DNA of 64,000 nt from the NCBI GenBank assembly GCA_963843145.1, contig CAWJJC010000022.1, positions 416,001 through 480,000 on the forward strand, given 5' to 3'. The notes below the pieces were generated by a model. The model saw nothing but the letters and a program-made list of their open reading frames with translations. It had not been told where the DNA came from and made no database searches. Each line of letters starts with the position of its first letter. Position 1 is the stretch's first letter. This DNA is from an uncultured delta proteobacterium (GTDB lineage Bacteria > Desulfobacterota > RBG-13-43-22). The position numbers and the translations under genes are program-made. Positions 35,918 to 45,111 of the stretch are shown here, piece after piece.

Positions 35918-36079
35918 CGTCATCCCCGAAGGTCTTTATCGGGGATCCAGTGTTCCTTGAAGAAAAGCCTGGATTCCCGCTCAGAAGCGCCGCGGGAATG
36001 ACGCTTTATGATGTTGTTACTATTTTGAGACCATTTGTAAAAGGTATTTGGACGTCATTCCCGCGGAGGCGGGAATCCA
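35918..36079. repeat. CGTC-type REP cluster downstream of the GIY-YIG gene
   Basis: cgtcatccccg...ggaatgacg and cgtcattcccgcggaggcgggaatcca. Confidence 0.82.
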
Positions 36080-36081
36080 GG

Positions 36082-36375
36082 TCACCGGATGATCATGTCC
36101 GTTAGATCTCTCCAATCAGCATTATTTCGTTCGATCAACCTGATTTTCCAGGCCCGCTCCCATTTTTTCATCTGTTTTTCTCGAGTCAAGGCGCTTTCAG
36201 CCGTCTCATGCACTTCAAAGTAGACAAGATTCTTTATGCCATATTTTTTTGAAAAACCGTCTGCCTGGCCCTCCTTATGTTGCCAAGTCCTCTGAACCAG
36301 ATTCGAGGTCACACCAATGTAGAGCGTTCCATTTCGTTTACTGGCCAGGATGTAAACATAGAACTGTTTAGGCAC
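36082..36375 (-). CDS. Small GIY-YIG nuclease
   Basis: YVYILAS..NGTLYIGVT, REKQMKKW. Confidence 0.92.
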   Translation of the reverse strand: MPKQFYVYILASKRNGTLYIGVTSNLVQRTWQHKEGQADGFSKKYGIKNLVYFEVHETAESALTREKQMKKWERAWKIRLIERNNADWRDLTDMIIR

Positions 36376-36388
36376 ACAAAATCCTTAT

Positions 36389-36421
36389 GGATTCCCACGC
36401 AGAAGCGCTGCGGGAATGACG
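36389..36421. repeat. CGTC-type REP upstream of the GIY-YIG gene
   Basis: ggattcccacgcagaagcgctgcgggaatgacg. Confidence 0.75.
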
Positions 36422-36463
36422 GTCCGACCACGAACCAATAACGCCTGACGTGAATTTTTCTTG

Positions 36464-38554
36464 TCAGGTCGTCTCTTTTCCTATCCTCTCCATCAGCACC
36501 ACAATCGACCGAGGTTGAACCGGGTAGGTCTCCCCGGAAACAGCCGGGGCGTGGGCCCAGGTGCCGATGTCTTCGGGCGGGTCCAGCGCGGTGTCGATCC
36601 ACCGGTGCCAGGCCTTGCCCTGCAGGTTTTGAACGGGCGGCAGTTCAAAGGTCAGGGGCTTCCAGTAAGCGTTCAACATCATGTAGGTCAAGAGCCGGCC
36701 CTGGCGGCTCCAGGCGCTGAAGGCCAGACTATGAGAATCCGGGCTCCAGTCGGGCTGGCTGAGCTTGACCCCGTGCCACTGAATCCGGGCCTGTCTGAGG
36801 ATCTGGCTCAGGGTCAATTCCCGGCCGGGGGTGAAGGTGTCCGTGCGCAGGCGGGCCGCGATCAAGCTCTTGACGAACCGATGCACATCGGCATGTTCAG
36901 CCAGGAGGTCCCAATCCAACCAACTGATTTCGTTGTCCTGGCAGTAGGCGTTGTTGTTTCCCCCCTGGGTCCGACGGACCTCGTCGCCCATGAGGAGCAT
37001 GGGGGCCCCCAGGGCCAGGAGGGTGACGGTTAGAAAGTTCTTTACCTGGCGGTTGCGGAGCCTTTCGATTTCCGGTTTGTCCGCGGGGCCCTCCACCCCG
37101 CAATTCCAACTCAGGTTGTCGTCGGTCCCGTCGCGGTCCTCTTCGCCGTTGTCCTTGTTGTGTTTGGTGTTATAAGAGACCAGGTCGTTCAAGGTAAAAC
37201 CGTCGTGGCAGGTAACGAAATTGATGCTCTGTTCCGGTTCGCGTTCCTGCCCGCCGTAAAGGTCCGGACTGCCCAGTAGCCGGGGGGCTACGGCGGAAAC
37301 GGCGCCACGGTCGCCTTTGATAAAGCGCCGCACGTCATCCCGGAATTTGCCGTTCCATTCTTTCCAGCTTTCCCCGACAAAGCTGCCCACCTGGTAAAGC
37401 CCGGCCGCGTCCCAGGCTTCGGCAATCAGCTTGGTACCGGCCAGGACCGGGTCGGATTCAATATCCCAGAGGACCGGGGGATTGGCCAGGGGTTGGCCGG
37501 TTTCATCCCGGGAAAGAATGGCGGCCAGATCAAAACGGAAGCCGTCCACGTGCATCTCTTCAACCCAGTGGTGTAAACTATCGATGATCATCCGCCGGAC
37601 GATGGAATTGCCGGAATTGAGGGTATTGCCGCATCCCGAATAGTTGGCGTACCGGCCGGTGGCGGCTTCCAGGATGTAGTAAGCCCGGTTTTCAAAACCC
37701 CGATAGCAAAGCGTCGGACCGTATTCGTGCCCTTCGGTAGTGTGGTTAAAGACCACGTCCAGGATGACCTCGATCCCGGCTCGGTGCAGGGCCTTGACCA
37801 TATCCCGGAATTCATCCAACGGATCGAGGGGGTCTCGGCGGGAGCAGTAACTCCCGTGAGGGGCGAAGAAGCTGACGGGGCTGTAGCCCCAGTAGTTCTC
37901 GAAGCCGGGAGGCGCGTCCTGTTCATCAAATTCAAAGACCGGGAGGAGTTCCACGGCGGTGATTCCCAAATCCTGCAGGTAGGGGATTTTCTCGATCAAC
38001 CCGGCGTAGGTCCCCCGTTTATCCACTGGCACCCCCGAACTGGGATGACGGGTGAATCCCCGGACGTGCAGTTCATAAATAATGGTATTGGAAAACGGGC
38101 GCCGGAGTGGGGCGTCCCCCTCCCAATCGTAAAGGCTCAAATCCGCCACCACGCTTTTCATGGCCGTGGCCGTGTTGTCTCCCGGAAGGCCGGCGGCCAG
38201 CCGGCTGTAATGAGGGGGCGTCACCAAGGCCTTGCCGTAGGGATCCAGCAGAATTTTTTGGCCGTCAAAACGCAGCCCCTTTTCCGGTGCATAGGGGCCG
38301 GAAACACGGTAGCCATAGATTTGTCCGCAAGTCAGTCCGGGGACGAAGATATGCCAGTAGAAATAGGTCCGGTTTTTGTTTGGTTCCAGGAGAATGACCC
38401 GGGCCGGTCGGGCGTCATCGGGCCGGTCGAACAGGAGCAGTTCCACTCCGGAGGCGTTTTTGGAATAGACGCTGAAATTGACGCCTTCCGGGTTGACAGT
38501 GGCTCCGAGGGGGAAAGCGCTTCCCGGGGGATATTGATCACTAGAGGAGTTCAT
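36464..38554 (-). CDS. glgX: Glycogen debranching enzyme
   Basis: PLGAT, YWGYS, DVVFNHT, DGFRFDL, AEAWD, CHDGFTL. Confidence 0.95.
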   Translation of the reverse strand: MNSSSDQYPPGSAFPLGATVNPEGVNFSVYSKNASGVELLLFDRPDDARPARVILLEPNKNRTYFYWHIFVPGLTCGQIYGYRVSGPYAPEKGLRFDGQKILLDPYGKALVTPPHYSRLAAGLPGDNTATAMKSVVADLSLYDWEGDAPLRRPFSNTIIYELHVRGFTRHPSSGVPVDKRGTYAGLIEKIPYLQDLGITAVELLPVFEFDEQDAPPGFENYWGYSPVSFFAPHGSYCSRRDPLDPLDEFRDMVKALHRAGIEVILDVVFNHTTEGHEYGPTLCYRGFENRAYYILEAATGRYANYSGCGNTLNSGNSIVRRMIIDSLHHWVEEMHVDGFRFDLAAILSRDETGQPLANPPVLWDIESDPVLAGTKLIAEAWDAAGLYQVGSFVGESWKEWNGKFRDDVRRFIKGDRGAVSAVAPRLLGSPDLYGGQEREPEQSINFVTCHDGFTLNDLVSYNTKHNKDNGEEDRDGTDDNLSWNCGVEGPADKPEIERLRNRQVKNFLTVTLLALGAPMLLMGDEVRRTQGGNNNAYCQDNEISWLDWDLLAEHADVHRFVKSLIAARLRTDTFTPGRELTLSQILRQARIQWHGVKLSQPDWSPDSHSLAFSAWSRQGRLLTYMMLNAYWKPLTFELPPVQNLQGKAWHRWIDTALDPPEDIGTWAHAPAVSGETYPVQPRSIVVLMERIGKETT

Positions 38555-38811
38555 CGGTTCGTACCCTCCGGTTGATAGAACACCCGTTCCTGATTTTTCA
38601 GGATTATTCCCGGATCGAACGGTCCGGGTCAATTTTGTCCGGGCAGGACTTCTTTTGGATACGCTTCATACCCAGACCCCGTTTTCAACCAGGGGCAGCC
38701 GTTTCGCCGGGGTAACTGATTTTGAGCGTTTGTCCAATGGTTCAATAATAGCAGAAAATGCAGATTAGACCAATGATGATTTATTCCCCTTTTTCGAAAA
38801 TGGGGGAGGAG

Positions 38812-39861
38812 TTATGGTTCCAGAAAGCATTGCGGGTCTTCGCCGGTCAGGTGGGGACGCCCCGCGGCCCGGGAAAAGGCATAGGCCATAGCCCGGCATC
38901 CCCGACAGGCCGCCCACCGGCGGCAACGGCCGCATTTTCCTTCGTAACTGTTTCTATCCCTTAGCCGCTCCAGTACCGGGGAGCCGCTCCAGAGTTCACG
39001 CAGGGAGTCCCGGCGCACATTTCCGATGGGGACCGGCAACCGGCGGCAGGGAGTGACCGTGCCGTCGGCCATCAAGGTCAAGCCGGATACCCCGGCCGCG
39101 CACCCGCCTTGGGGGAACCCTCCCAGGTCGTTCGGATCAGCGCCCGACTCCATCTGCCGGTAAAGGGGATCGCCGCTGACCAGTTCCAATCCCTCGGGAG
39201 AGAGGGAATGGATTTCCTGATAAAGGTCCCGGACTTGATCCGGTTTTAACAGCTTGGAAGAGAGCAGGGCCCCTTGACCGGCGGGGATCAATCGGGAGAA
39301 CCCCAGCCGCTGGACGTTCAAGGCCTGGGCCAGGGGAATCATTTTTAAAAATTGGTCCCGGTTGAGATCGGATAAAGTTGTATTGATGGTCACCGGGATC
39401 CCGGCTTCCACTAAGGTTCCGATCCCTTTCAGCGCTTCGGCAAAACTGCCTTTCCCCCTGAGGGCATCATGGGTTTCCTCCAGACCTTCCAGACTGATCT
39501 GGACTCCCCGAACCGCCAGGCGGCTCAGTCGGCCTGCCCTATCCCGGTCCAGGAGGGTTCCGTTGGTCAGGAGATAAAGGTCAAAACCCCGCCGACTCAT
39601 TTCTTCGAGAATTAGAAAAAGATCGGAGCGCAGGAATGGCTCTCCTCCGGTAACATTGATACTGGTCTGGAAGGTCAGGCCATAGCTATTTGACCAGTCT
39701 GCCAGCATCAGGGTTATCTCGTTCAGGGTTTCTTTGATTTCAGAGAAAGTTAGTTCCTCAAAAGGCCCTTTCTCCTGATAGCAGTGGAGACAATGAAGAT
39801 TGCATTTTTCGGTCAGATGCCATTGAAAAAAGAAATCAAAGGGGTGGTCGGTTTGCATCAT
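38812..39861 (-). CDS. Radical SAM/SPASM domain protein (putative peptide maturase)
   Basis: QWHLTEKCNLHCLHC, TGGEP; SPASM GCAAG...PC...CGRC-x5-C-RGC...DPQC. Confidence 0.9.
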   Translation of the reverse strand: MMQTDHPFDFFFQWHLTEKCNLHCLHCYQEKGPFEELTFSEIKETLNEITLMLADWSNSYGLTFQTSINVTGGEPFLRSDLFLILEEMSRRGFDLYLLTNGTLLDRDRAGRLSRLAVRGVQISLEGLEETHDALRGKGSFAEALKGIGTLVEAGIPVTINTTLSDLNRDQFLKMIPLAQALNVQRLGFSRLIPAGQGALLSSKLLKPDQVRDLYQEIHSLSPEGLELVSGDPLYRQMESGADPNDLGGFPQGGCAAGVSGLTLMADGTVTPCRRLPVPIGNVRRDSLRELWSGSPVLERLRDRNSYEGKCGRCRRWAACRGCRAMAYAFSRAAGRPHLTGEDPQCFLEP

Positions 39862-39916
39862 TCAGGTCCGTTTTCTGGTCTTCATTCTAAACCCTCTGAC
39901 CCGGGGCGGGCACCCC

Positions 39917-40062
39917 AAATGAACGTCGAACATTGAACATCGAACGCCCAACCTCGAATGAAAAACAAGCTTCCATTGCCGGACAGAGAGTGTCAAATCT
40001 TGTTCTTTCATCTTCTTTTATTCAATATTCGATGTTGGAAGTTCGATGTTCGATGTTCAATT
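39917..40062. repeat. Heptamer-repeat palindromic element (GAACATC/GAACATT type)
   Basis: Inverted 7-mer arms; near-identical ends to 47480-47624. Confidence 0.8.
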
Positions 40063-40150
40063 GCTCAATGACCCTTACAAAGCCCATCCAGCGCAAAAAT
40101 AACCTACGGCCTATTGGGCGCGGGCGGGCTATTTTCATACCAAGGACAAA

Positions 40151-40203
40151 GGCGGATAGGGAGCAGGTTAGCGATGCTTTTTCCCCGCCTCCTCCCTATC
40201 CGT
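40151..40203 (-). terminator. Strong hairpin between peptide ORF and maturase (possible leaky terminator or mRNA stabiliser)
   Basis: cggatagggag/ctccctatccg stem with a short T-tract on the minus strand. Confidence 0.45.
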
Positions 40204-40213
40204 CCGTTGATTC

Positions 40214-40232
40214 CATTGCTGAACCAGCAATG
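40214..40232 (-). promoter_or_regulatory. Putative bacterial SECIS hairpin
   Basis: CATTGCTG-GTT-CAGCAATG, starting 10 nt after the second in-frame TGA, G-U in the apical loop. Confidence 0.6.
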
Positions 40233-40233
40233 T

Positions 40234-40356
40234 TTACGATTTTCAGCCTTTTCACTTGTGGCATACTGTTTTGGGACCTTCCTTCGCCGCTGCCTTCATT
40301 TTGGCCCAAAAAGCTGCCTCTTTCGCCAACCCCTCCGGGTTCATCTTTTTTTTCAT
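40234..40356 (-). CDS. Putative selenocysteine-containing precursor peptide MKKKMNPEGLAKEAAFWAKMKAAAKEGPKTVCHKUKGUKS
   Basis: AGGAGGTG RBS, two in-frame TGA in C-x2-U-x2-U spacing, TAA stop, SECIS-like hairpin, upstream of rSAM/SPASM gene. Confidence 0.7.
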
Positions 40357-40439
40357 CCTTTTTCACCTCCTTTCTTTTGTTAAGTATCCGGTATCGAGTT
40401 TCGTCTCTATCCGGCATCCGTCTTTTCAACCCGCGAACC

Positions 40440-42083
40440 TCAACTTTCCTCCCCCTTCTTACGGTCCAAATCCATTTGCCGCAGATCCTTGCGCATGATT
40501 TTGCCGGTGGCCGTCAGGGGCAGTTCGGCCAGGAATTCGATTTCCCGGGGGTATTCATGGGCGGCCAGTCGGGTTTTAATAAACTGCTGGATTTCTTCTT
40601 TCAGGGAATGCTCGGGGAGTATTCCGGATTTAAGAACGATAAAAGCCTTGACGATTTCCCCCCGTACCGCGTCGGGGCTGCCGATGACCCCGGCCAGGGC
40701 CACAGCCGGGTGTTTGATCAGGCAATCTTCGATCTCGGCCGGCCCTATCCGGTACCCGGCGCTGCTGATCAGGTCGTCCTTGCGTCCCACGAACCAGAAA
40801 TAGCCCTCCTCGTCCTTGCGGGCCAGGTCGCCGGTCAGACTCCAGTCGCCGATGAACTTGTCTTCCGTGGCCTGGGGGTTGCCCCAGTAGCCCAGAAACA
40901 TGACCGGGTCCGGCCGCTGGATGGCCACCTCTCCTATTTCTCCCGGGGGCAGGACCTGCCCTTCTCCATCCACGATCTCCACCCGGTGGCCGGGAATGGG
41001 ACGGCCCATGGAACCCCGCCGGTTCTCCATGATCTCGGAACAATTGCCCAGGACCAGGTTTACCTCCGTTTGCCCGTAGAATTCATTAATCGTCAGCCCC
41101 ATGACCTTACGGCCCCACTCCAGGAGTTCTTCGCCCAGGGTCTCCCCGCCGCAGCCGATGGTCCGCATGGCAAAATCGTAACGGTCCCCCGGGTCCGGGA
41201 CCTGGCGCATGATCTTCAGGGCCGTGGGCGGCATGAAGGCATTGCGGATACCGTATTTGGCGATAAAATGAAAGGCCTGCTCGGGGTCAAACTTTTTTGC
41301 CCGAAAGGCGACTACCGGGACCCCGTGGTGCCAGCTTGGCAGCAGGACGTCGATCAAACCGCCGATCCAGGCCCAGTCGGCCGGTGTCCAGTACAGGTCA
41401 TCTTTTTTGGGAAAGAAATTATGGAAGAACTCCACTCCGGGGACATGGCCCAGGACCACTCGCTGGGCATGGAGCGCCCCCTTGGGCGGGCCGGTGGTGC
41501 CGGAGGTATAGATAATCAAGGCCGGATCGTCGGCCCTGGTCCGCAGCGGGGTAAAGGAAGGGGATCCTTTTTCCAGGATCTTCCAGAAATCGACCACTCC
41601 ATCGGGGGTTTCTCCCCGGGTGACGATAACCGTCTTCAACTCCGGCAAGCGGTCCTTTATTTCCAGGATCTTGGGGAGATTGTCTTCGTCGGTGATCACC
41701 GCCCGGGCGCCGCTGTGACCCAAACGGTATTCCAGGGCCTCGGGTCCGAAGAGGGTGAAAAGAGGGAGAGCGATCCCCGCGGTTTTATAGATGGCCAGAT
41801 GGGAGAGGGCCGTCTCCGGACATTGCGGCAGGAGGATCCCCACCCGTTCCCCCCGATGCAGGCCGCAGGCCTGCAAGGCGTTGGCCAGGCGGTTGGAGCG
41901 CTGTTTGAGGTCCCAAAAGGTATATTTCTCGACCTGCCCCTTATCGTCTTCGTAGATCAGGGCCAGGCGGTAGCGCTGGTCAGCCCACTTGTCGCAGCAA
42001 TCCACCCCGATATTGTAGAATAGGGGGACTTTCCAGTGGAAGGAGTTATAGACCTTTTCGTAGGTGTTCCCTTTTTTGAGCAT
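40440..42083 (-). CDS. Acyl-CoA synthetase (AMP-forming)
   Basis: YTSGTTGPPKG, YGQTE, TGD, GRKDD, TGKIMR. Confidence 0.92.
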   Translation of the reverse strand: MLKKGNTYEKVYNSFHWKVPLFYNIGVDCCDKWADQRYRLALIYEDDKGQVEKYTFWDLKQRSNRLANALQACGLHRGERVGILLPQCPETALSHLAIYKTAGIALPLFTLFGPEALEYRLGHSGARAVITDEDNLPKILEIKDRLPELKTVIVTRGETPDGVVDFWKILEKGSPSFTPLRTRADDPALIIYTSGTTGPPKGALHAQRVVLGHVPGVEFFHNFFPKKDDLYWTPADWAWIGGLIDVLLPSWHHGVPVVAFRAKKFDPEQAFHFIAKYGIRNAFMPPTALKIMRQVPDPGDRYDFAMRTIGCGGETLGEELLEWGRKVMGLTINEFYGQTEVNLVLGNCSEIMENRRGSMGRPIPGHRVEIVDGEGQVLPPGEIGEVAIQRPDPVMFLGYWGNPQATEDKFIGDWSLTGDLARKDEEGYFWFVGRKDDLISSAGYRIGPAEIEDCLIKHPAVALAGVIGSPDAVRGEIVKAFIVLKSGILPEHSLKEEIQQFIKTRLAAHEYPREIEFLAELPLTATGKIMRKDLRQMDLDRKKGEES

Positions 42084-42126
42084 GGAGAGATCCTTCTCAG
42101 AAGCGCTGCGGGAATGACGCGCTCAT

Positions 42127-42657
42127 TCATTTTACCAGGTCCGCCTCCACCTCCAGGTTAAGGAGGACCTCATTCCCGGCCACCAGGCCGCCGTTTTCCA
42201 TGGTGAAATTCCAGCTTACTCCGAAATCATGGCGGTTGATGCGGGTAGTCGCCGAAAAGCCGATGCTGATGTCTTCGTCGAAGGGACTTTTCACTTTCCC
42301 CAGGTATTCAAGGTCCAGGGGTACGGATCGGGTGACACCCCGGATGGTCAAATCGCCGGTCACTTTAAAGCTATGAATGGCTACCGGTTCCATCCTGAGA
42401 CCCTTAAATTGGATGAGCGGATGATTATGCACGTCTAAAAAATCAGGGCTGCACAAGTGCTCGTCCCGCTTCGGGATACCGGTATAAATGGAGGCGGCTT
42501 CGATTTCGACTTCCACCGAACCCAGGTCGGGTTTGTCCGGATCGAATTGAATGGACCCGGAAATCTTGTTGAACTGGCCGCGAACCAGGGTGATCATGAA
42601 GTGCCGGACGGTAAAGGCGGCCACGGTGTGATCAGGGTCAATTTTCCACTCAGACAT
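42127..42657 (-). CDS. YceI family protein
   Basis: WKIDPDHT, RDEHL, GDLTIRGVT; RBS aggagg before 42657. Confidence 0.92.
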   Translation of the reverse strand: MSEWKIDPDHTVAAFTVRHFMITLVRGQFNKISGSIQFDPDKPDLGSVEVEIEAASIYTGIPKRDEHLCSPDFLDVHNHPLIQFKGLRMEPVAIHSFKVTGDLTIRGVTRSVPLDLEYLGKVKSPFDEDISIGFSATTRINRHDFGVSWNFTMENGGLVAGNEVLLNLEVEADLVK

Positions 42658-42784
42658 AGAAACCTCCTTGAAATTCCATTTGCCAACAACCAGAGGAAAG
42701 TTTAACATAGTTTAAAGAAAGTTTCTAGTCCAGCGGCTCGACCCTGTTGTAAAAATATTGATACCATTGATATAGGTGGCCTTT

Positions 42785-43129
42785 ATGGGACGCATGAGTT
42801 TTGGCCCCGGGAGGCGGTCTTCCCGCAGTCCGGTAAAATCCCCGTCCTCGGAAAAAGACCCGGCGGCTTTTGTCCGGGATTTGAAGAAGTCTCTGCCGGT
42901 CCGGGAAAGCTATCGGGACCGCTCTCTGGCTATCCACGGACTGATCTGCGCCCGCTGCGGACGGGAATTCGAGCCGGCCCAGCGGCAATTGCTCACCGTC
43001 CATCACCGGGACGGGAACCATCAGAATAACCCGCCCGACGGCAGCAACTGGGAGAATCTATGTATCTATTGCCATGAGGATACCCACTCCCGGGAGTTGC
43101 TGGGGGAGTATTTAGATAAAAAAGACTGA
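42785..43129 (+). CDS. yajD: YajD family HNH nuclease
   Basis: CARCGREF, LTVHHRDGNH.NNPPDGSNWENLC.YCH. Confidence 0.85.
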   Translation: MGRMSFGPGRRSSRSPVKSPSSEKDPAAFVRDLKKSLPVRESYRDRSLAIHGLICARCGREFEPAQRQLLTVHHRDGNHQNNPPDGSNWENLCIYCHEDTHSRELLGEYLDKKD

Positions 43130-45111
43130 TGATTTCCATTGACCGCGTTTCCAAATTCTATGGCCGGCAAGACCTGCTGAAAGAGGTTTCCTTTTCCATC
43201 AATCCCGGGGACAAAATGGCCCTGGTCGGGGCCAACGGCACGGGGAAAACTACTCTTTTCAGAATCCTCCTGGGCGAAATCGAGCCGGACAGCGGCCAGG
43301 TCCACCTGAAAAAAGGGGTTCGGTTGGGGCATCTTCCTCAGGAGGTGATCCGGGTAAAGGGAAAAAGGGTCCTGGACCAGGTGATGGAAATGGATCCGGA
43401 GCTAAAACGGTACCAAATCGAGTACCGGGAGGTCTCGCGACGGTTGATTGCCGCCTCTGATCCTGCCGACCAGGAGATTTTGGCCCATAAGCAAAGCCGT
43501 TTATTGGAGGAACTGGAACGTCTGGGGGGGTACGATCTGGAGGCCCGGGCCCAACAAATCCTGTCCGGTTTGGGTTTCTCGGAGGAACAGTTTCAGGCCC
43601 CGGTGGAGACCTTAAGCGGAGGGTGGGTCATGCGGGCGGCCCTGGCCCGGATCCTGCTGTTGAAGCCCGAGCTGCTCCTTTTGGATGAGCCGACCAATCA
43701 CCTGGACCTGGATTCGTTATTATGGTTAGAGAATTTTCTTAAAGGGACTTCATCGGCCCTGCTTTTGATTTCCCACGACCGGGTTTTTATGGATAAAGTG
43801 GTCCTGCGGGTCCTCGAGCTGGAAAAGGGGGGGCTGACCTCCTATGCCGGCAATTACAGCCGGTACCGGGAAGAAAAAGCCAAGCGCCTCCAGCTTCAAG
43901 AGGCCGCCTATTATAACCAGGTAGAGAAGATTCGCCAGATTGAGGACTTTGTCGCCCGAAACCGATCCCGAAAAGATCGGGCCAAGCAGGTGCAATCCCG
44001 GATTAGGGTCCTGGAGCAAATGGAACGCCTCGAACATCCTCGGGAGGAACATCAGGTTTCCTTTCAATTCCAGGAGCCGGTACGGACCGGCAAGGTGGTT
44101 TTGGAACTCCAGGGGGTCGGGAAATCGTACGGTGAAAAAATACTCTATCAAGGAGTTGATCTGACGATCAGCCGGGGAGACTGTGTCGCTTTTCTAGGCC
44201 CCAACGGCGCAGGGAAAAGCACGCTGATCAAGATCATGGCCGGGATCGTCCCGCCCGACCAAGGAAAACGGGAACTGGGGCATCATGTCACCCTGGACTA
44301 TTTTGCCCAGCATCAACTGGACCAGTTGAGAGGCGAACGAACGGTCTGGCAGGAGATCGGCGATGTGGCCGGCGATCGGACCTACGGGGCCTTGCGAAAT
44401 CAGTTGGCGGCCTTCTTATTCCGGGAGGAGGATGAAATCAAAAAAAAGGTCTCGGTCCTTTCCGGGGGGGAGAAAAGCCGTCTGGTGATACTCAAGATGC
44501 TCCTGGGCGGGGCCAACTTTCTGCTTTTTGACGAACCCACCAACCATCTGGACATCCCTTCCCGTGACGTGTTGGAAGAGGCGCTGCGCGCCTTTAACGG
44601 GACTATTTGCCTGATTACCCACGACCGGCATCTGATCGATGCCCTGGCCAACCGGACGGTGTATATTCGAGACGGGCGGCTGGAAATGTTCCCGGGAAAT
44701 TACCGGGACTTTGAGCAGATCTGGAAAGGACGAGTGGAATCGAAGGAACCTTCCGAGGACCCATATCCCAAAGACCTTTCCCGAGCGGCCGGTTTGAAAA
44801 ACGGTGCCCCGGGCCGCAAAACGACCCAGGAGAAGCGGCAGGAGGCGGAGCGGCGCAACGCCCTGTTTAGACAAAAAGCGCCCCTCAAAAAGGAAATCGA
44901 AGAGCTGGAAGAGCGGTTAGCCGGGGCCGGCGCCGAGAAAGAAAGACTGGGGAAAATCCTGGCCGATCCGGAATTCTACCGCCAGGGGACGGGGATTCAG
45001 GAAGCCCAGCAAGGCTATGGGCGGCTTCAGAAGGAAATCGACACCCTGACCGAACGCTGGGCGAAAGCCCTCCAAGAGTTGGAAGAACTGGAAGCCCAGG
45101 CGGGGGACTGA
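43129..45111 (+). CDS. ABC-F family ATPase
   Basis: Two ABC cassettes (GANGTGKTT, GPNGAGKST, LSGG, DEPTNHLD), C-terminal coiled coil. Confidence 0.95.
   Translation: MISIDRVSKFYGRQDLLKEVSFSINPGDKMALVGANGTGKTTLFRILLGEIEPDSGQVHLKKGVRLGHLPQEVIRVKGKRVLDQVMEMDPELKRYQIEYREVSRRLIAASDPADQEILAHKQSRLLEELERLGGYDLEARAQQILSGLGFSEEQFQAPVETLSGGWVMRAALARILLLKPELLLLDEPTNHLDLDSLLWLENFLKGTSSALLLISHDRVFMDKVVLRVLELEKGGLTSYAGNYSRYREEKAKRLQLQEAAYYNQVEKIRQIEDFVARNRSRKDRAKQVQSRIRVLEQMERLEHPREEHQVSFQFQEPVRTGKVVLELQGVGKSYGEKILYQGVDLTISRGDCVAFLGPNGAGKSTLIKIMAGIVPPDQGKRELGHHVTLDYFAQHQLDQLRGERTVWQEIGDVAGDRTYGALRNQLAAFLFREEDEIKKKVSVLSGGEKSRLVILKMLLGGANFLLFDEPTNHLDIPSRDVLEEALRAFNGTICLITHDRHLIDALANRTVYIRDGRLEMFPGNYRDFEQIWKGRVESKEPSEDPYPKDLSRAAGLKNGAPGRKTTQEKRQEAERRNALFRQKAPLKKEIEELEERLAGAGAEKERLGKILADPEFYRQGTGIQEAQQGYGRLQKEIDTLTERWAKALQELEELEAQAGD

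Follow-up and report, generated by a model that had tools for sequence, protein, structure and literature searches.

The question raised by this locus is whether a short minus-strand frame, interrupted by two TGA codons, encodes a peptide with two selenocysteines (Sec) and, if so, what that peptide is to the radical S-adenosylmethionine (SAM)/SPASM enzyme whose gene follows it. The locus lies in a 64,000-nucleotide (nt) piece of DNA from an uncultured delta proteobacterium (assembly GCA_963843145.1, contig CAWJJC010000022.1, positions 416,001 to 480,000), which was analysed as a whole and is referred to here as the window. An original prediction, made from the letters alone, had proposed a selenopeptide precursor and its maturase, differing from the known SbtA/SbtM pair and hidden from gene callers. 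On comparison of the locus with its relatives, the small gene appears, with high confidence, to be real, translated and linked to the enzyme. We further propose, with a probability of about 0.7, that the two genes form a cassette in which a double-Sec peptide, carrying a Sec insertion sequence (SECIS) in the 3' untranslated region (3' UTR) of its messenger RNA (mRNA), is acted upon by the radical SAM/SPASM enzyme.

The frame begins with an ATG (40356-40354, minus strand), 7 nt downstream of the ribosome-binding site (RBS) AGGAGGTG (minus strand, positions 40371-40364), and runs over 40 codons to a TAA (40236-40234), the whole gene occupying 40234 to 40356. An RBS of the GGAGGTG type also precedes the start codon in those homologs whose loci were inspected. 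Read on the minus strand, the frame is MKKKMNPEGLAKEAAFWAKMKAAAKEGPKTV-C-H-K-TGA-K-G-TGA-K-S-TAA; it encodes a lysine-rich peptide of 40 residues, in which a conserved N-terminal part (KEAAFW...P) is followed by the C-terminal core C-H-K-U-K-G-U-K-S, U standing for Sec. The core Cys is encoded by a TGC at 40261-40263, while the two in-frame TGAs, at 40252-40254 and 40243-40245, correspond to residues 35 and 38. Past the stop codon, a hairpin with an 8-base-pair (bp) stem and a GUU loop, CATTGCTG-GTT-CAGCAATG (40214-40232, minus strand), has its start at a distance of 10 nt from the second TGA and of 19 nt from the first. The gene for the enzyme, a protein of 349 amino acids with the Pfam domains Radical_SAM (E 7e-23) and SPASM (E 1e-10), lies at 38812-39861 on the same strand. 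Those coordinates that the original prediction had given, and its 10 and 19 nt spacing of the hairpin, are all correct.

The peptide was sought by six-frame search in 61 genomes, namely the source genome and 60 relatives, and full-length matches with an in-frame TGA were found in 17 of them (the source, 15 of the 20 relatives from the same family, and one genome from another family). A profile built from an alignment of 18 peptides (A1) and run on 401 genomes sampled over the phylum returned TGA-containing matches in 21 genomes (E <= 5.6e-6); five further weak matches devoid of a TGA are probably due to chance. A scan for relatives of the enzyme, with one genome per species, contributed 80 loci, and the pool of all loci amounted to 86 peptide copies with 82 distinct sequences, to which the codon counts refer. 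The records of the carriers are labelled Thermodesulfobacteriota, Nitrospirota, Syntrophales, Geobacter, Deferribacteres, and Chloroflexi/Dehalococcoidia. Compilation of the 82 sequences revealed that (i) the core Cys is present in all of them (TGC, n = 66; TGT, n = 16), (ii) TGA occupies the first Sec site in 80 copies and the second in 81, with TGC in the other 2 and 1, respectively, (iii) the residue after the second site is Lys in all 82 (AAA, n = 28; AAG, n = 54), (iv) the next residue is Ser in 53 (written TCG, TCC, TCT, TCA, AGC, or AGT) and Gly in 17, (v) the tail after the second Sec consists of 2, 3 or 4 whole codons, with no length change by part of a codon, and (vi) an in-frame stop is always present (TAA, n = 40; TGA, n = 26; TAG, n = 16). 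The consensus core reads C-[HLR]-[KA]-U-K-[SG]-U-K-[SG], with one more residue optional. Within A1, E13, A14, W17, K21, P28, C32, K34, K39 and S40 are invariant, and the picture is similar over all 82 copies. Recurrence of the same frame, with both TGAs, the hairpin and the enzyme gene, in 82 distinct sequences is far beyond chance; moreover, sequencing errors, a concern that the original prediction had itself raised, do not account for the TGA codons, as these are met with again in assemblies made independently.

If the frame ended at its first TGA, the product would be a 34-residue peptide terminating in C-H-K, and the conserved sequence beyond would be an RNA element only. Public gene calls do stop at this point, and Rfam reports no SECIS family at the locus (see below), but the bases past the TGAs behave as codons. 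Ser is written with both TCN and AGY at one and the same position, invariant Lys positions use AAA as well as AAG, and lengths differ by whole codons ahead of an in-frame stop that is never missing; two-family Ser codons, Lys wobble and whole-codon shifts argue for selection on a translated product rather than on an RNA element. In addition, TGC replaces TGA at either site, if rarely (site 1 in loci L065 and L148, site 2 in L047); two of these replacements occur among paralogs of one genome and one in a Deltaproteobacteria record, and all three are, judging from the sequences, classical Sec/Cys exchange. The possibility, envisaged at the outset, that homologs simply terminate at the first TGA was thus not borne out, and we regard the 34-residue product as scarcely credible.

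The truncated form is nevertheless the one that protein collections contain, as the original prediction had anticipated in stating that gene callers would miss the peptide. When the profile was run against 1.84 billion representative proteins, the library having been clustered at 50% identity, it gave 88 matches, 17 of which were inspected by eye. Short proteins made up 83 of them, the match stopping at profile position 33-34, at most one residue from the protein's own C-terminus; likewise, a word-based protein search with the peptide returned five matches, all of them 34-residue truncated forms. P0013 alone spans all 40 profile positions; it has W in place of either Sec and again where the frame should stop, and since W stands at the TGA sites it represents a gene call made under a code in which TGA is W. 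No all-Cys form of the peptide is found among the 88 matches. Four long proteins (P0010, P0054, P0093, and P0096) were matched in several stretches, the two that were inspected (P0010 and P0054) being repetitive, and all four are regarded as spurious. A scan of the peptide and its 18 homologs against NCBIfam and Pfam assigned them to no family, with three chance matches at E >= 0.02. Naming slips occur in the public records (among P0009, P0013, P0109, and others), one 34-residue truncated peptide being called 'chitodextrinase'.

The hairpin that the original prediction had likened to a SECIS proved to be a property of the whole family. A hairpin of 5-11 bp follows the second TGA in 81 of the 82 copies, whatever the tail length or the stop codon. 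The distance from that TGA to the start of the stem is 8-16 nt, falling within 9-12 nt in 72 of the 81 and being most commonly 10 nt, and the distance to the start of the loop is 16-19 nt in 75 of the 81. Among the loop sequences are GUU (n = 17), GGUC (n = 17), GUC (n = 15), UGGAU (n = 12), GGUCA (n = 7), GUG (n = 3) and a few others, all of them with G followed by U or G. In an alignment of 31 sequences, 93.5% of the cells are paired and five of the eight pairs have changed on both sides, with a covariation of 0.281 against 0.154 in shuffled alignments, a value that none of 500 shuffles reached; shifted registers pair in only 21-61% of cells. One member keeps the shape of the hairpin with a quite different stem, GCCGCC/GGCGGC. 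In the window, a 117-nt stretch holding this hairpin and a second, GC-rich one (described below) folds with z = -4.17, only 1 of 200 shuffles being as good, and its centroid structure shows both hairpins.

The minimal SECIS of Escherichia coli, of the fdhF type, is an apical stem-loop that lies some 11 nt downstream of the UGA and has G and U in its loop. The family described here resembles it in that the stem lies mostly 10 nt after the second UGA and in its GUU, GUC and GGUC loops, but differs in that the element is located wholly in the 3' UTR and apparently serves two UGAs 9 nt apart. The source genome (G000) offers an internal reference SECIS for this organism, as its formate dehydrogenase alpha-subunit gene (contig C28, minus strand) contains an in-frame TGA (…HCARL-U-HSST…) with a hairpin 13 nt downstream that carries a GUC loop. 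We infer that a single hairpin serves both UGAs, because both TGAs are conserved and because selenoproteins with a UxxU motif have been predicted (PMC13188914). Table 1 of that source lists UxxU (NF041115, TIGR02605) and 'UXX-star' (NF041114, NF041211) selenoproteins which, as described there, share with the present peptide a Sec pair three residues apart, or a Sec near the C-terminus with the SECIS beyond the stop; unlike it, they are redoxin-like or metal-binding proteins of other families, none of which matches the peptide, and for none of which does the table record a radical SAM maturase.

In the decoding scheme that we propose, both UGAs would be read as Sec under the direction of one SECIS hairpin past the stop codon, bound by SelB, the second UGA standing at the usual distance of about 10 nt from the stem and the first three codons further upstream. 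The stop codon is itself a third TGA in 26 of the 82 copies (e.g. L020, L023, and L029), which is separated by 6 nt from the second Sec codon and by 1-4 nt from the hairpin, and identical codons would accordingly stand for Sec, Sec and stop within 18 nt. This third UGA, found in a third of the copies, would be too near the hairpin for recoding and would act as a stop, the same triplet being read in two ways within nine bases. If this is true, one 3'-UTR SECIS decodes UGAs about 10 and about 19 nt from its stem, and a UGA 1-4 nt away terminates.

The decoding apparatus that such a scheme presupposes, and whose presence the original prediction had left to be confirmed, is encoded in the source genome, with a tRNA-Sec, selA (609 bits), selB (368.8 bits; cut-off 242), and selD. 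In the phylum sample, selB scores above its cut-off in 20 of the 21 peptide-positive genomes, the exception being a genome 85% complete; since selB is nearly universal in this sample (372 of 401 genomes), the association of peptide and selB does not discriminate. The source selD (G000 C27:447576-448499, locus L010) has one in-frame TGA, which makes SelD itself a selenoprotein; reading of the sequence downstream of this UGA disclosed no clear hairpin.

A possible sign of transcription comes from a wetland RNA library, a 209-nt contig of which matches positions 40177-40376 at 97% identity with 6 mismatches, one of them a synonymous Gly change. The contig takes in the RBS, the frame and the SECIS, together with half of the second hairpin, and possibly hints that the peptide gene is transcribed; it is a contig only, and gives neither strand, ends nor level. 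No sequencing run matched half or more of the sampled words of the window, and a lack of cover over any part of it carries no information.

The association with the enzyme was assessed from both sides. Searched with tblastn, the enzyme gave matches at 32 of 35 peptide loci, always downstream, on the same strand and at 48-100% identity; the three loci without a match go back to two orphan paralogs of a single genome, in which a linked copy is present as well. Starting from the enzyme, 66 loci have an identity of 42% or more, and 60 of these have the peptide within 800 nt upstream, whereas all 14 loci with an identity of 39% or lower are without it; the peptide is thus kept next to orthologs of the enzyme, as the original prediction would have it. 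In 18-kb neighbourhoods from 15 genomes, the enzyme alone recurs widely (14 of 15), the fifteenth showing a partial tblastn match to it with no intact frame in the list of open reading frames. Neither a protease nor an exporter/transporter nor a PqqD-like gene is conserved beside the two genes in these 15 neighbourhoods. With the enzyme as the sole widely shared neighbour, the unit is a two-gene cassette. The genome with orphan copies (G020) contains three peptide paralogs (L063, L065, and L047) whose two sites are U/U, C/U and U/C, respectively, and one of which adjoins the enzyme gene. Downstream of one of its orphan copies, in the same orientation, lies a gene for a pyridine nucleotide-disulfide oxidoreductase (Pfam Pyr_redox_2, E 1.5e-58), and the other lies near a 190-residue frame (L065 3195-3767) that is putatively YceI-like by its sequence.

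An alternative reading is that of a regulatory leader, that is, a small frame in which the UGAs sense the supply of Sec-tRNA, a terminator-like hairpin downstream sets the transcription of the enzyme gene, and the peptide has no function. A second GC-rich hairpin of this kind does lie between the frame and the enzyme gene in the window (40142-40205, minus strand; a core of about 11 bp in which 40202-40192 pairs with 40163-40153, followed by a T-rich tract), and many related loci have an equivalent, with a clearer T-run, in their downstream DNA; two rare regulatory codons ahead of a terminator, moreover, resemble the design of attenuation leaders. A simple promoter and terminator scan of the window, for its part, recorded no promoter-like site and did not score the second hairpin as a terminator. 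Against the leader, the peptide sequence is conserved across phyla, with nine residues invariant in 18 sequences; orphan copies occur far from any enzyme gene; and in several lineages (e.g. L029/L030) only 36-65 nt separate the core from the start of the enzyme gene, too few for a terminator to fit in between. We hold a functionless leader to be very improbable.

The enzyme itself is a compact radical SAM/SPASM protein. Its SAM-cluster motif CxxxCxxC (C20, C24, and C27) and its seven SPASM cysteines (C254, C272, C310, C313, C319, C322, and C345, in the pattern C-x17-C ... C-x2-C-x5-C-x2-C ... C) are invariant in 16 orthologs. It falls under the curated cut-off of every NCBIfam model, the ranking being AhbD, SbtM, and then the ACGX, NirJ2, TIGR04053 and GeoRSP families, and a sequence search of the PDB returned only distant radical SAM relatives (SkfB, MoaA, PqqE, and CteB). 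The best match, that to AhbD heme b synthase (TIGR04545), extends over the full length but reaches only 176.2 bits against a cut-off of 500, and the gene is tied to the selenopeptide rather than to heme genes. Public orthologs go by the names of 'radical SAM protein', '...with 4Fe4S-binding SPASM domain' or 'AdoMet-dependent heme synthase', the last of which is probably a misannotation. A separate, weaker radical SAM/SPASM homolog, 34% identical, is encoded elsewhere in the source genome (G000 C20:662641-663654).

Two known systems invite comparison. As described in the sources cited, SbtA/SbtM of deltaproteobacteria-type anaerobes consists of a short peptide with two Sec and a SECIS beside a radical SAM/SPASM enzyme, and yields a thio(seleno)oxazole (PMC9204691, PMC11002830, PMC13188914). 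The present system shares with it this arrangement of a short double-Sec peptide, with a SECIS, next to a radical SAM/SPASM enzyme, and SbtM (TIGR04082) is the second-best NCBIfam match of the enzyme with 163.7 bits. This score, however, compares with a cut-off of 350, and the match covers only model positions 199-516 of 516, which implies that the enzyme is without the N-terminal 200 or so residues of SbtM. Neither the peptide nor its 18 homologs match SbtA (TIGR04081; cut-off 30.5 bits) at E up to 10, in agreement with the original prediction, and a search of the whole source genome with the same model gave only a chance match elsewhere (E 4.3). Furthermore, Sec occurs here in K-U-K and G/S-U-K, whereas that of SbtA, in the members described, stands in a GGUG/SGUG motif, and the family has a much wider spread than SbtA, reaching Nitrospirota and Chloroflexi and numbering 83 short profile matches in the library clustered at 50% identity.

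The second comparison is with the SCIFF/ranthipeptide cassettes (CteA/CteB, Tte1186a/Tte1186, and PapA/PapB). According to the available account (PMC10177961), CteB, PapB and Tte1186 have the same seven-Cys arrangement, in which auxiliary cluster 1 is held by three Cys and has an open site while cluster 2 is held by four; Sec-substituted substrates bind the iron-sulfur cluster of the enzyme through selenium (auxiliary cluster 1 in Tte1186) and are converted to selenoethers. The likenesses, within that account, are a cassette of a peptide of about 40-45 residues and a SPASM maturase, a conserved N-terminal part with a Cys-rich C-terminus, and the 3 + 4 Cys pattern of the enzyme. The C-x3-K and U-x3-K of the core, in our view, also recall the C-x3-D of PapA. 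On the other side, the enzyme described here resembles CteB only weakly in sequence (PDB 5wgg, E 1.6e-7 over residues 14-136) and is without an N-terminal recognition domain, and Sec is natural here and engineered there, the crosslink being only inferred in the present case. Judging from these sequences, the system would work like SbtA/SbtM and the SCIFF-type cassettes and is a member of neither.

On this basis, the peptide is rather probably the substrate of the enzyme. Its conserved N-terminal helix (K-E-A-A-F/Y-W ... P-G-K-V) would dock on the enzyme as the recognition element. Three Cys of the enzyme would hold the SAM cluster and seven Cys two auxiliary clusters, one of them with an open iron site as in the thioether-forming maturases, to which a selenolate or thiolate of the core C-x-x-U-K-x-U-K would bind; the 5'-deoxyadenosyl radical would then take a hydrogen from the core, which would be either crosslinked (Se-C or S-C) or oxidised at a Sec beta-carbon to a seleno-heterocycle. 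Ranthipeptide-like crosslinks are considered because the invariant Lys residues create the C-x3-K/U-x3-K spacing reminiscent of PapA, and a seleno-oxazole because SbtM is the closest characterised peptide maturase by score. By analogy with these two systems, Se-C/S-C crosslinks and an SbtM-like seleno-oxazole are about equally plausible; the selenoether crosslinks suggested in the original prediction would be one outcome, and any one chemistry for the enzyme on the peptide, taken singly, has to be called doubtful.

The same core could alternatively belong to a free-standing redox or metal/metalloid-binding C-x-x-U-x-x-U selenoprotein, which would be the partner of the enzyme (as a selenium donor, an electron carrier or a cluster-ligating subunit) and would not be modified by it. 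Such a role accords with the enzyme having no recognition domain and with the two genes having no conserved protease, exporter or RRE gene beside them; the i, i+3, i+6 spacing of the core recalls the CxxCxxC cluster ligands of ferredoxins, one orphan copy adjoins a pyridine nucleotide-disulfide oxidoreductase gene, and the near absence of Cys in place of Sec suits a function in which selenium itself matters. However, the oxidoreductase neighbour is a single case, the conserved N-terminal helix resembles a recognition leader, and the characterised compact SPASM enzymes that are paired with a short Cys-rich peptide are, in the accounts cited above for SCIFF, PapA and SbtA, its maturases. An unmodified partner of the enzyme is in our estimation unlikely.

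Several observations weigh against the cassette of Sec peptide and maturase. No RRE/PqqD-like recognition domain was found in the enzyme, Pfam giving only Radical_SAM, SPASM and Fer4_12, and the SAM-cluster motif, beginning at residue 20, leaves no space for an N-terminal one; nor is a partner gene of this kind conserved nearby that would account for recognition of the leader. Orphan peptide copies with no enzyme exist in one genome (G020), and, among the six of 66 enzyme loci that showed no peptide, four had enough upstream DNA to reveal one, the remaining two having less than 140 nt of upstream sequence. As to decoding, 19 nt separate the first UGA from the stem, more than in the classical arrangement, and a search of positions 36000-44000 against Rfam at E up to 10 matched no SECIS family; of the four matches that it gave, all of them weak, three concern microRNA families of plants or animals and the fourth a ribozyme family. 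We take this result as a limit of the library and not as evidence against a SECIS. Finally, the RNA-library contig stems from a relative and not from the source genome, and may reflect carry-over of DNA.

With regard to the fate of the product, the cassette is accompanied by no protease or exporter, and Cys hardly ever takes the place of Sec, which favours an intracellular product that needs selenium. From the gene content, a small modified intracellular selenoprotein or a cofactor-like peptide is more likely than a secreted bacteriocin. The rarity of Cys in place of Sec also suggests a chemistry that needs selenium itself.

In the literature searched, with the supplements of the papers lying outside its scope, SbtA/SbtM is the only natural family of Sec-containing radical SAM substrates described. 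Similarly, the table of a 2026 inventory of 119 prokaryotic selenoprotein families (PMC13188914) contains no peptide with a C-x-x-U-x-x-U core motif, its supplements, as well as those of 10.1101/2022.07.06.499078, being outside that scope. From its sequences, the present family is probably a second, larger and differently built family of natural Sec peptides paired with a radical SAM/SPASM enzyme, and one hitherto undescribed. Standard annotation hides it, cutting the peptide short or overlooking it and giving the enzyme a generic name or that of a heme synthase. The family offers a defined and testable candidate pair of enzyme and substrate in which radical SAM enzymes may carry out new chemistry on selenium, a means of correcting genome annotation, and a natural case in which the distance from the SECIS would decide between Sec insertion and termination. 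A bolder view, which we put forward tentatively and with the odds somewhat against it, is that of an obligately selenium-dependent family matured by radical SAM enzymes in anaerobes of at least five phylum-level groups, which would constitute the first natural selenoether-bridged or the second seleno-heterocycle type of peptide and would act as an intracellular cofactor or a metal/metalloid ligand, its mRNA being a natural ruler for bacterial Sec recoding.

The remaining features of the region concern the surroundings of the two genes. In the window, an acyl-CoA synthetase-type gene lies upstream of the cassette and a gene for a GlgX debranching enzyme downstream of it. A YceI-like gene (42127-42708, minus strand; Pfam E 1.7e-46) is situated about 2 kb from the peptide gene, and clustering by blastp placed YceI-like homologs near the cassette in two other genomes (L086 and L091), in one of them directly after the enzyme gene; this recurrence is weak. 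Between the peptide and the enzyme genes of the window is an inverted-repeat element of about 150 nt (39915-40070, not assigned to a strand), with a fold of -52.8 kcal/mol, for whose arms blastn returned 105 short matches spread over 12 contigs of the source genome; the intergenic gap is shorter in three genomes of the same genus. The element looks like a repetitive extragenic palindromic (REP)- or miniature inverted-repeat transposable element (MITE)-like repeat inserted between the two genes, and not like a part of the system. Many metagenome and metatranscriptome contigs match the arms of this repeat alone and have a different inner sequence.

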